From IMG/VR virus record IMGVR_UViG_2529293214_000003, positions 1-8,881 of that record: 8,881 nucleotides of DNA; one strand, given 5' to 3'. Source of the stretch: a virus. Lineage: Duplodnaviria > Heunggongvirae > Uroviricota > Caudoviricetes. Of the stretch, positions 3,001-6,000 are shown in pieces (the stretch's first letter is position 1; each line of letters begins with the position of its first letter). Made by a program: the position numbers.

Positions 3001-6000
3001 AGCGGAATTGAAAACGCCTCCGGCTCCAGCGTTGCCAGAACGTCGCTGGCAGTTGGCGTTAATCCACCAATCAGCAGGCCACCGATAACGCTCGCTTCGA
3101 TATCCTGTCTCATGCAATCCCCCTGTCTGCAAACTTCCCTTCCCGGACTCCCGTTAACGAGTCTTCTCTCAGCAGGTAATCAAAATCTGCCGTCCAGCCC
3201 GTGTCGTTGTCTCCGAAGTAAAACGGCTTGGCCTGATGCACAAACGCCCTGACATACGCTCTGAAACCGTCCACGTTTGGCGTTTTCAGTTGCGGGATGA
3301 TTTTCTTCAGGCGGCGTTTGCGTTTCTCGTTGACCTCAACAGCATGTGGAAGTCTGTCACCGACTTCTGTGTTGTAGGCGTTCAGGAAGGATTCGTAGTC
3401 GATTCGTTCTGCCTTGCGACGTTCAGGTTTAACCTGCCCATCGCCTCCCCCATTGGGGGGTAGGGGGGTATTATTTATATTCTTGTTAATACCTTCTTGT
3501 TCATGATGTGCGGTTGTTTGTGCGGCTTCATGTGCGCTTTCATGTGCGGCATGTTCGCTGAAATCCGCGCCATTACTGGCTTCGTCATGTGCGGCATCAT
3601 GTGCGGTTGTTTGTGCGGCTTCATGTGCGGGTGAATCGTCCATTTTTTGAGCATATTCATGGTAATTTGTGATGGTAATCACACGACCTTTTTGCTTCTC
3701 TCCATCAATGGTGATCATCCCCTCTTTCACAAAAACCTGAAGCATCCGCTCAACCTGATCGCGGCTTGCTGGCTTGCCATGCCTGTCGCATAACTGAAGA
3801 CCTAAATCAGCTGCTGTCACAACCAGTTGACCGGGTTGCAGATGCCATTCATGACCTTTGAAATTCGCTTTGTATGGCTTTCTGGTGGCATTCAGGAGAA
3901 GGTTTTCCCACAGGGTGCGAAGATAAACATCTTTCGCCCATGACTGTTTCAGAATGCTCCGGTACAACGGAATGTAACCAGTTTTCTGGTTCTCCATCCT
4001 GTTGCTCCTGCGCTCGTGTGCGGCGCTGAAATCGTAGATTTTTGCTGTATTGCTCATAACTACCTGCCTTGACGAAAGACCTTAAGAACATCGTTAAACT
4101 GACTTACGGATATGTCTTCTTTGAGCAGCTTTTCCAGAAATGCGTTTGGAATGAACGTATATCCCTCCTCTTTTGGTAGAGACGGGAGCAACGCCCTCGC
4201 CTCAGCCTTCAGAAGCTCAGTTCTGGCAACTTTCACAAAAGAGATTTGAGTTCTTTCATCAATGGAACGAAGGAAGCGCAAACGCTTAGCTTCTTTGTGT
4301 GTATCAGGTGGATTAAAGCCTTTGTTTCGCATATAATTACCTCGCTGGATGTTGTTAAAATTCCATTTGTATTTGTTCAGAACGCTCGGTTGCCGCCGGG
4401 CGTTTTTTATTGGTGAGTCCATCAAGCGCATACTTAAAAGCCCTGCTAATCGGACTGATGTCTGATGCCATTCCGAAAGCACACAAGACCGAAGCAATAA
4501 ACCTCCAGTCTGTTCTGCTTATCTTCGATTCATGACAGCCAATCATCTTTGCCAGACCGCGCTGGGTAAGCGTTGACAGGTTGATGAGTAAATCTGTTTC
4601 TGCGCGATCAACGTCACGCTGTGATAGTTTGCTGTAACTTGTTTGTTCCATTTCTTACTATTTCCATAGGTAAATAATCACTAATACTCATCTTTCGATG
4701 AGTGATTAATTAGTTACCGCGTTGTCGGCGGTGCAGATTGATAAAGAGCGGTGTTACTTATGCTGCCTGATTCGGTTTTGGAAACAGGTGTGGTAAATCT
4801 GGGCGGATTTCGTAAGCCTTGATCTGCCCTCCAGTGGCGTTAACAATGGCGGTAACTTTCTCTGGAGAGACCAACCCGCCTTTCAGCCATTTATGTACTG
4901 CTGGCTGCGTTACACCACACTTGTCGGCAAGGCGCTTTTGGCTACCGACAATTTTCAAGGCTCGTTGAATTACTAAATTCATGAGCATACCTCTTGTGGA
5001 CATTACTTATAACCAAAGATAACTCAAGTTATAAAAAATAGCAATAACCTTTGTTATTTTACTTTGGATAACCGTAGTTATAGATTTGTGGGTATGAAAA
5101 CATTCGCAGAAAGACTAAATGCAGCCATGAGCTCAGCAGGGGTGTCACAATCACAGCTTGCTGACATGGTTGGAATATCTCAGCCAGCCATACAGAAGAT
5201 GTCATCCGGTAAAACAAACGGATCTCGCAAGATGGTTGAATTAGCCAATGCTTTAAAAGTACGCCCTGAATGGCTTAGCTCAGGTATTGGTGAAATGAGG
5301 GATGGTGCACATGAAGAGCCATCGAATGTGCGTGAGTCATCTTTAAAAGCGGTGGTATGGGAAGACATAAAAAGAAACGATGACGAGTTTGTCGCATTGC
5401 CTCTTCTTAATGTTTCTCTTTCCGCCGGGAGTGGTAGCTGTGAGTTAGAGGAATCATCTGAGTTCTCTTTGGTTTTCAGAAAGTACTATCTGAAAAAGAT
5501 GGGGGTATCTGAAAGCTCTGCCAAGCTGGTTAGGGTGATAGGCCAAAGCATGGAGCCAACCCTTCACGATGGTGATGTTGTTGGAGTCAACACGCAAGAC
5601 ACCACCATCAGAGATGGTAAAACCTACGCTATTTGTCAATCTGATTTACTAAGAGTAAAGACATTAATAGCCACACCTACATCCGTGATAATCAGATCAA
5701 TAAATCGCGAAGAGTACCCTGATGAAGTAATGGATAGAGATGAGTTTCATGAAACAGTAAGGATTATTGGCAGAGTATTCTGGTCATCACATAGCTGGTA
5801 ACCAGTGGCCTGAAGAAACGTTTGGGTGAGGAGGATAGATGGCGTTCACTGACCTTGAATATCAAGCGGTCAAAAAAGAAGTTCACCAATTCATTGAAAG
5901 CATAAGGCCGCCTGAACATATCCGCAATGAACTGGATATTGTTTATAGCATCAATGACCAAACGATAGATATCGGCGAACAGCGCCCCGTGTGGCAGGGC

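Follow-up and report, generated by a model that had tools for sequence, protein, structure and literature searches.

A probable replication origin made of 12-bp direct repeats inside the O-like initiator gene of a lambdoid phage

The DNA analysed here, referred to below as the window, is a stretch of 8,881 base pairs (bp) from a Caudoviricetes virus (IMG/VR record IMGVR_UViG_2529293214_000003, positions 1 to 8,881). The window is a lambdoid immunity and replication region, and its minus strand carries a gene for an O-like replication initiator with a cluster of short repeats inside it. In an earlier reading of the letters of the window, called here the sequence-only reading, these repeats and an adjacent AT-rich block were taken for a replication origin of the lambda type. 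The elements of the locus are listed below, in the direction in which the gene is read.

3110-4057, minus strand: O-like initiator gene, 315 amino acids (Pfam Phage_rep_O)
about 3644-3997, minus strand: part of this gene coding for the winged-helix N-terminal domain (N-domain)
3447-3643, minus strand: part of this gene coding for the linker, with the putative origin
3584-3631, minus strand: iteron array adjoining the N-domain part, four 12-bp units, on the coding strand CCCGCACATGAA (3631-3620), GCCGCACAAACA (3619-3608), ACCGCACATGAT (3607-3596) and GCCGCACATGAC (3595-3584)
3551-3583, minus strand: central 33-bp spacer, on the coding strand GAAGCCAGTAATGGCGCGGATTTCAGCGAACAT, which sets the invariant 45-bp offset
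3503-3550, minus strand: iteron array adjoining the AT-rich block, four 12-bp units, on the coding strand GCCGCACATGAA (3550-3539), AGCGCACATGAA (3538-3527), GCCGCACAAACA (3526-3515) and ACCGCACATCAT (3514-3503)
3469-3502, minus strand: AT-rich block of low guanine plus cytosine (GC) content, presumed DNA-unwinding element
3447-3468, minus strand: G/C-rich inverted-repeat element, on the plus strand CCCCC ATT GGGGGG TA GGGGGG
3110-3446, minus strand: part of the gene coding for the HK97/P22-gp18-type C-terminal domain (C-domain)

Eight units of 12 bp, each four codons long, occupy 3503-3631 as two arrays of four separated by a 33-bp spacer, and a period of 12 was returned by Tandem Repeats Finder for both clusters. 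The unit spacings are 12, 12, 12, 45, 12, 12 and 12 bp, where 45 bp is the step from the last unit of one array to the first unit of the next, and the unit consensus on the coding strand is N-C-C-G-C-A-C-A-T-N-N-N. The core TGTGCGG occurs eight times in the window against 1.15 +/- 1.15 expected, and none of 200 shuffles contained eight or more. Seven of these copies lie on a single strand within 3507-3630, and TGTGCGC at 3531 is the version of the core in the eighth unit. The sequence-only reading had described two copies of a 31-bp repeat with extra core copies, all within the O-like reading frame. The 31-mer ATGTGCGGTTGTTTGTGCGGCTTCATGTGCG was indeed found in exactly two copies (3506-3536 and 3599-3629), the number of cores went beyond the shuffles, and all the repeats lie inside the minus-strand open reading frame (ORF) 3110-4057, where they correspond to codons 143-185 of 315 and encode the peptide PAHEAAQTTAHDAAHD...AAHESAHEAAQTTAHH. 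The description of the iteron itself had to be changed, since the unit is neither 31 bp long nor a lambda-like palindrome of 18-19 bp but a 12-bp direct repeat. Inverted-repeat arms were searched for in the array and none were found; the units are direct repeats without dyad symmetry.

Two other candidates in this part of the window were set aside. The ninth core copy, TGTGCGG at 4017-4023, was considered as an extra initiator site, and no core was present at that place in any of the 41 relatives checked; it is probably a matter of chance or a coding coincidence (SAAHERR). At 4014-4033 this copy, TCGTGTGCGG, is followed by CGCTGAAATC, a 10-mer of which an identical copy is found in the inter-array spacer (3554-3564). 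An alternative-frame ORF at 3475-3660 (61 amino acids, rich in His, Met, Pro and Lys) was attributed to the repeats themselves.

The O-like gene is 100% identical to that of Escherichia phage TL-2011a and 99.7% identical to the genes of about 48 Stx2a-converting phages and of E. coli O121 chromosomes, and its N-domain is also present in the P22-like coliphages CUS-3, Kapi1, JEP4, HF4s and Gally. For the comparison of relatives one genome per species was used, which gave 47 loci, 44 of them analysable, from many genera of Enterobacterales including Xenorhabdus, Yersinia, Citrobacter, Enterobacter, Atlantibacter, Brenneria, Pantoea, Proteus and Sodalis, with N-domain identities of 66-86%. The unit spacing was 12, 12, (12), 45, 12, 12, (12) bp in all 44 loci, with 3+3 or 4+4 units and an invariant step of 45 bp. 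The same 12/45-bp geometry was found with N-domains of only 45-47% identity, although the cores there are wholly different: CGATRA in Salmonella phage S.Inf 5-2 and G(T/A)CGA(A/G) in Enterobacter phage ENT1. A more distant relative is a prophage of a Sodalis metagenome-assembled genome (L053, 1857-2030). Its CG(A/G)TACA units number eight or more and follow one another at steps of 12, 45, 12, 27, 12, 12 and 45 bp; this prophage thus has more than two arrays, and the 45-bp step recurs in it.

Comparison of codon positions across these loci shows that the repeats are constrained as DNA and not as protein. Unit positions 3 and 6, which are third codon positions, carry 1.9-2.0 bits of information, and position 3 is C in 298 of 298 units. 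At unit position 1, where a codon begins, the information is 0.3-0.4 bits, and P, A, G, T or S may be encoded. The baseline, taken from conserved four-fold codons of the N-domain at the same loci, is 0.55 bits on average at the third position. The Ala codon of the core is GCA in 132 of 134 units of one class of loci, and the other class has GCG (108) or GAG (52) at that place, while all four Ala codons are in use in the N-domain at 18-30% each. Selection on the peptide does not account for a synonymous site that is the same in all units of one genome and different in those of another; the constraint acts on the nucleotide sequence. Phage L provides an independent demonstration of DNA constraint, as the equivalent repeat there has a period of 11 bp and all three reading frames are used in its translation.

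The core was found to vary together with the initiator. Two core classes were distinguished among the 44 loci, CGCACA (21 loci, including the window) and CG[C/A]GCA (23 loci), and two columns of the N-domain separate them without exception. Residues are numbered here from the internal start MENQK, so that 20 has to be added for the full-length protein (62/80 become 82/100). Position 62 is A or P in the CGCACA class and S or T in the CG[C/A]GCA class, and position 80 is D in the former (21/21) and H in the latter (23/23); in the more distant classes, which have different cores, position 80 is Q (S.Inf 5-2) or K (ENT1). One locus (L040) is 98% identical to Yersinia phage Yen210 over residues 1-55, yet it has S62/H80 and the other core. 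The repeat class tracks the helix-turn-helix (HTH) half of the domain rather than its first half. Direct readout of an A:T pair by Asp and of a G:C pair by His would be chemically plausible.

The N-domain was matched by Phage_rep_O (PF04492) over residues 20-132 (E=6.3e-15, 55.9 bits against a cutoff of 28.7), and the repeats begin past the end of this match at residue 132. An AlphaFold2 model of the N-domain, for which the alignment was built from database homologues of the N-domain that are mostly partial proteins, had a mean predicted local distance difference test score (pLDDT) of 77 and a predicted template modelling score (pTM) of 0.71. It contains helices at 62-68 and 79-91 and a beta hairpin at 95-109, which with moderate confidence gives the layout of a winged HTH. 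In the model, residue 62 is the first of the predicted HTH helix 62-68 and residue 80 the second of the recognition helix 79-91. Foldseek comparison of the model with PDB gave weak matches (best E=0.013), nearly all of them winged-helix DNA-binding proteins or regulators, and no match at E<=0.001, so that the fold class is supported and the family is not. A sequence search of PDB with the N-domain profile found nothing significant (best E=0.014).

Nucleotide comparison also indicated how the gene has been put together. In distant blastn matches it splits at about 3474-3484, within the AT-rich block. For the C-terminal part (3110-3484), identity to HK97 O, ST104 gene 18 and many other sequences is 95%, and the N-domains and repeats of these are unrelated to those of the window. 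The N-terminal part with the repeats (3474-4010) is 74-80% identical to Klebsiella phage 2b LV-2017 and Yersinia phage vB_YenM_210.17, where its partner is a phi80/lambda-type C-domain and the gene that comes next encodes a P-type loader instead of a helicase. The gene thus consists of two modules: the N-domain, the repeats and the left part of the AT-rich block form one, and the right part of that block, the inverted repeat and the C-domain form the other. The second module follows the type of helicase or loader. In lambda O, recognition of the origin is the task of the N-domain and recruitment of the helicase system that of the C-domain, and such a split is what would be expected if the two domains had these tasks here as well. 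The sequence-only reading had proposed that the iteron sequence determines the specificity of the replicon, and this proposal is supported by the DNA constraint, by the co-variation with the HTH and by the inheritance of N-domain and repeats as one module.

Past the last unit, GC content falls to 29% over 3465-3502, compared with about 50-57% in the flanks, which bears out the AT-rich block that had been noticed beside the repeats. The block begins with GAACAAGAA and contains two TTCTTGTT(A/C)AT repeats 14 bp apart. The junction between the last unit and the block is spanned by nine bases, CATGAACAA, which are the same in all 44 loci, even at the three third codon positions among them. The adjoining G/C-rich inverted repeat, whose CCCCC-ATT-GGGGGG part lies at 3447-3460, is common to P22, HK97, S.Inf 5-2 and ENT1; it stands where lambda has an inverted repeat after its AT-rich region, and from this position it may have a role in the origin.

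The central spacer is conserved in its own way. Its motif CCAGYAAYGGCGCGG (peptide (A/P)SNGA), also written CCAGTAATGGCGCGG, is kept where the iterons differ or are unrelated, and it is present in S.Inf 5-2 and phage L as well. The window form of the central motif CCAGTAATG(G/A)CGCGG is GCCAGTAATGGCGCGG (3563-3578, coding strand). Third codon positions of the motif are conserved while neighbouring positions vary, independently of iteron class. The GGCGCGG of the spacer was considered as an inverted iteron and rejected, as it is unchanged across iteron classes and present beside unrelated iterons. No DnaA box (TTWTNCACA, at most one mismatch) was found in 3243-3722, and the whole window has 21 against 20.3 expected. 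A scan of 3300-4200 gave no promoter-like sites, and a terminator scan of the same segment gave two terminator-like hits on the non-coding strand, which is chance level.

On these grounds it is proposed, with a probability of roughly 0.85, that 3447-3631 is the replication origin of a lambdoid (Stx2a-type/CUS-3-type) phage replicon, located inside its own initiator gene, and that the repeat core together with A82/D100 sets its specificity. The order of the elements agrees with the ori-lambda-type origin that the sequence-only reading had suggested, with repeats between the parts coding for the N- and C-domains, the AT-rich block downstream and then the inverted repeat. The repeats, their invariant geometry, the conservation at the DNA level, the co-variation with the HTH and the modular inheritance of N-domain and repeats are all observed here, and from them we infer binding, unwinding, helicase recruitment and firing at 3447-3631. 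The winged-helix N-domain would recognise the eight 12-bp repeats (core CCGCACAT) in two arrays of four with a 45-bp offset, and the resulting nucleoprotein complex would, by analogy with lambda, destabilise and open the adjoining AT-rich block at 3469-3502. The HK97/P22-type C-domain would then bring in the phage's own DnaB-type helicase, encoded by the next gene; this step is suggested by the consistent pairing of C-domain type and downstream gene. Which replicon is recognised would be set by the repeat core and the recognition-helix residues A82/D100. The three-unit arrays of many relatives argue against an obligatory binding of one dimer per pair of units.

Three other explanations of the repeats were weighed. 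The one that survives best, though it is unlikely, is that they are binding sites of the initiator with a mainly regulatory function (titration, autoregulation or handcuffing) and that replication truly starts elsewhere in the replicon. Such dual roles are established for plasmid iterons, a pair of arrays at a fixed 45-bp offset could serve pairing, and the start at 3447-3631 is deduced rather than mapped. However, the AT-rich block and the inverted repeat make up the full lambda/P22/HK97 layout at the same position in the gene, relatives do not carry a further repeat cluster or AT-rich candidate along with the module, and cores outside the arrays are rare in them, and there is no promoter-like site nearby that the repeats could regulate.

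It is still less probable that the protein which binds the repeats is not the O-like initiator but a host factor or some other protein of the phage. The perfect co-variation of repeat class with the HTH residues of the initiator is hard to reconcile with this explanation, and so is the fact that the repeats move with the N-domain through mosaics with differing neighbour genes and hosts. Sites for a host factor would not switch class between phages of the same hosts, and DnaA boxes are lacking in the region and at chance level in the window. What speaks for another protein is that binding by the initiator was deduced indirectly, and that the spacer motif is conserved regardless of repeat class, which leaves room for a different partner of at least one element. 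The weakest explanation, a low-complexity Ala/His-rich linker between the domains that arose by slippage and has no function as DNA, fits the location of the repeats exactly in the inter-domain linker, a period that is a multiple of three and a unit number of 3 or 4, but it is very improbable since it is contradicted by the codon-position analysis (invariant third codon positions in the core with varying residues), by the synonymous GCA/GCG difference that is uniform within each genome, by the entirely different linker peptides of S.Inf 5-2 and ENT1 with the 12/45-bp geometry kept, and by the 11-bp repeat of phage L that is read in three frames.

Several points weigh against the proposed origin and its specificity. 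No experiment on this replicon was found, and binding, unwinding and initiation are deduced from comparison. The two core classes may go back to a single evolutionary split, and because the HTH half of the domain adjoins the repeats, linkage could produce the association without selection. The 12-bp units have no dyad, unlike the palindromes of 15-19 bp in other lambdoid origins, so the O-some model of lambda cannot simply be transferred. The conserved central spacer is left unexplained by the origin model. Furthermore, the structural model is of moderate confidence (pLDDT 77) and its winged-helix matches in Foldseek are weak.

A joint reading of these observations, in which this initiator family forms an origin complex of another kind than that of lambda, can be offered as a speculation, which we consider possible rather than probable. 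Initiator monomers would sit head to tail on the 12-bp (or 11-bp) units of two arrays at a fixed offset of 45 bp (or 44 bp); the central CCAGYAAYGGCGCGG, flanked by the arrays, would play no part in iteron specificity and may be contacted by a host factor or by another face of the initiator; and specificity would be switched largely by a single residue of the recognition helix, D100 or H100, reading A or G at unit position 6.

If 3447-3631 is the origin, it is of an ordinary kind, a lambdoid origin inside the initiator gene in the textbook arrangement, and no new principle is involved. The literature mentions its sub-type, in which the direct repeats are short, a single time, as a proposal for phage L. 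The proposal would place an origin in a module carried by Stx2a prophages (E. coli O121, O103:H25), CUS-3-like P22-type phages and many prophages of Enterobacterales, at a place where current annotations mark none. The suggested specificity code, in which A at unit position 6 goes with D100 and G with H100, could be put to use in making lambdoid replicons that are compatible or incompatible, or in stopping Stx phages from replicating. The layout of two arrays with 12/45-bp spacing, found with at least five unrelated cores, would be a second widespread origin design beside the four palindromic iterons of lambda.

Some features of the initiator gene and its surroundings were also recorded. On the minus strand at about 3998-4009 there is AGGAGCAAC(A/C)GG, with a Shine-Dalgarno-like AGGAG 7 nucleotides before the internal ATG at 3997 (MENQK). 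It is kept with one variable base in 41 of 41 relatives, AGGAGCAACAGG upstream of this ATG is invariant in them, and the 5' extension of the ORF varies. The ATG at 3997 may serve as an additional start of translation, from which a shorter initiator would be made. The database homologues of the N-domain (P0001-P0068) are mostly labelled 'partial', with about 110-200 amino acids, and end near the repeat region, which suggests that short-read assemblies often break at the repeat array. The neighbouring genes are as follows.

720-3113, minus strand: DnaB-type replicative helicase gene, 797 amino acids (Pfam DnaB_C, E=4e-71, and DnaB N-domain)
4355-4651, minus strand: cII
4758-5003, minus strand: cro-like gene
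5064-5801, plus strand: cI-like repressor gene

The helicase has 797 amino acids, against 458 in HK97, CUS-3 and S.Inf 5-2. Directly past its Walker A motif there is an insertion of about 339 amino acids with Pfam matches to LAGLIDADG_3 and Hom_end; judging from these matches it looks like an intein with a homing endonuclease, with an N-terminal Ala instead of Cys or Ser. RefSeq calls the helicase 'replicative DNA helicase' in the listed genomes other than those of O121, where its name is 'DnaB-like helicase N-terminal domain-containing protein'.

The candidate origin was finally compared with known systems. A literature search for ATGTGCGG or CCGCACAT together with iteron or origin gave no relevant paper, and a broader search returned lambda-type Stx origins and the remark on phage L but nothing on the repeat type of the window. 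Ori-lambda consists of iterons and an AT-rich region inside gene O. The window shares with ori-lambda, phi80 gene 15, P22 gene 18 and HK97 O the location of the origin within the initiator gene, between the N- and C-domains, and also the order of elements along O transcription, with iterons followed by an AT-rich or A-rich block and then an inverted repeat. In these origins the N-domain (Phage_rep_O) is the one that binds DNA, and the C-domain binds the helicase or the loader. A-rich blocks comparable to the block of the window, with a doubled ACAAAAGA motif, come after the iterons of lambda, P22 and HK97. The C-domain and the G/C-rich inverted repeat are those of HK97 (95% identity) and resemble those of P22, and the N-terminal peptide, MSNTAKI..F, is similar to the first residues of phi80 gp15 (MSNTAEIINF) and of lambda O. 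The four phages differ from the window in having four iterons of 15-19 bp with dyad symmetry, about 20-24 bp apart (ATCCCTCAAAACGAGGGA in lambda, TTCCCGAAAACGGGAA in phi80, TTTACCGAATCGGTAAA in P22 and TTAGCCGACTTGGCTAA in HK97). The annotated lambda origin has four 18-bp sites with steps of 20-24 bp, and phi80 has four gp15 sites with steps of 21 bp. Palindromic iterons of the lambda type bind dimers of O.

The origins of Stx phages 933W and P27, which have been studied experimentally, lie in gene O and have six iterons like those of lambda, together with an O of the lambda type (Kozlowska et al. 2020, PMC7466680). They resemble the phage of the window in being Stx-converting lambdoid phages of the same host range with an origin inside gene O, whereas the window has another N-domain family, another type of repeat and its own DnaB-type helicase. 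In plasmid origins and the origin of Vibrio chromosome 2 (RctB 11/12-mers), a winged-helix initiator acts on short direct repeats beside an AT-rich element. The resemblance is in the possible way of working only and no homology is claimed; unlike these origins, the window has no DnaA boxes in the repeat region, and its origin would lie inside the coding sequence of the initiator.

The closest published case is gene 18 of phage L (Lederbergvirus ST64T), in which six imprecise 11-bp repeats TGTCCAACGGA were called the likely origin (Zaworski et al. 2020, PMC8022706); a rep_origin is annotated at 31650-31726 in its GenBank record MW013503, and the origin there is a sequence-based proposal. Phage L differs from the window in a period of 11 instead of 12 (the latter being found in the 44 closer relatives too), an offset of 44 instead of 45, the core TGTCCAACGGA instead of CCGCACAT, 3+3 instead of 4+4 units and a different C-domain. 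Like the window, it has short direct repeats in two arrays within the O/gp18 gene (spacings 11, 11, 44, 11 and 11 bp), with a fixed offset of about four units between the arrays, the central motif in the form CCAGTAATGACGCGG, an AT-rich block directly past the last unit, a DnaB-type helicase gene downstream, and a remotely homologous N-domain (BLASTP, 24% identity over 139 columns, E=6e-10 for the pair).

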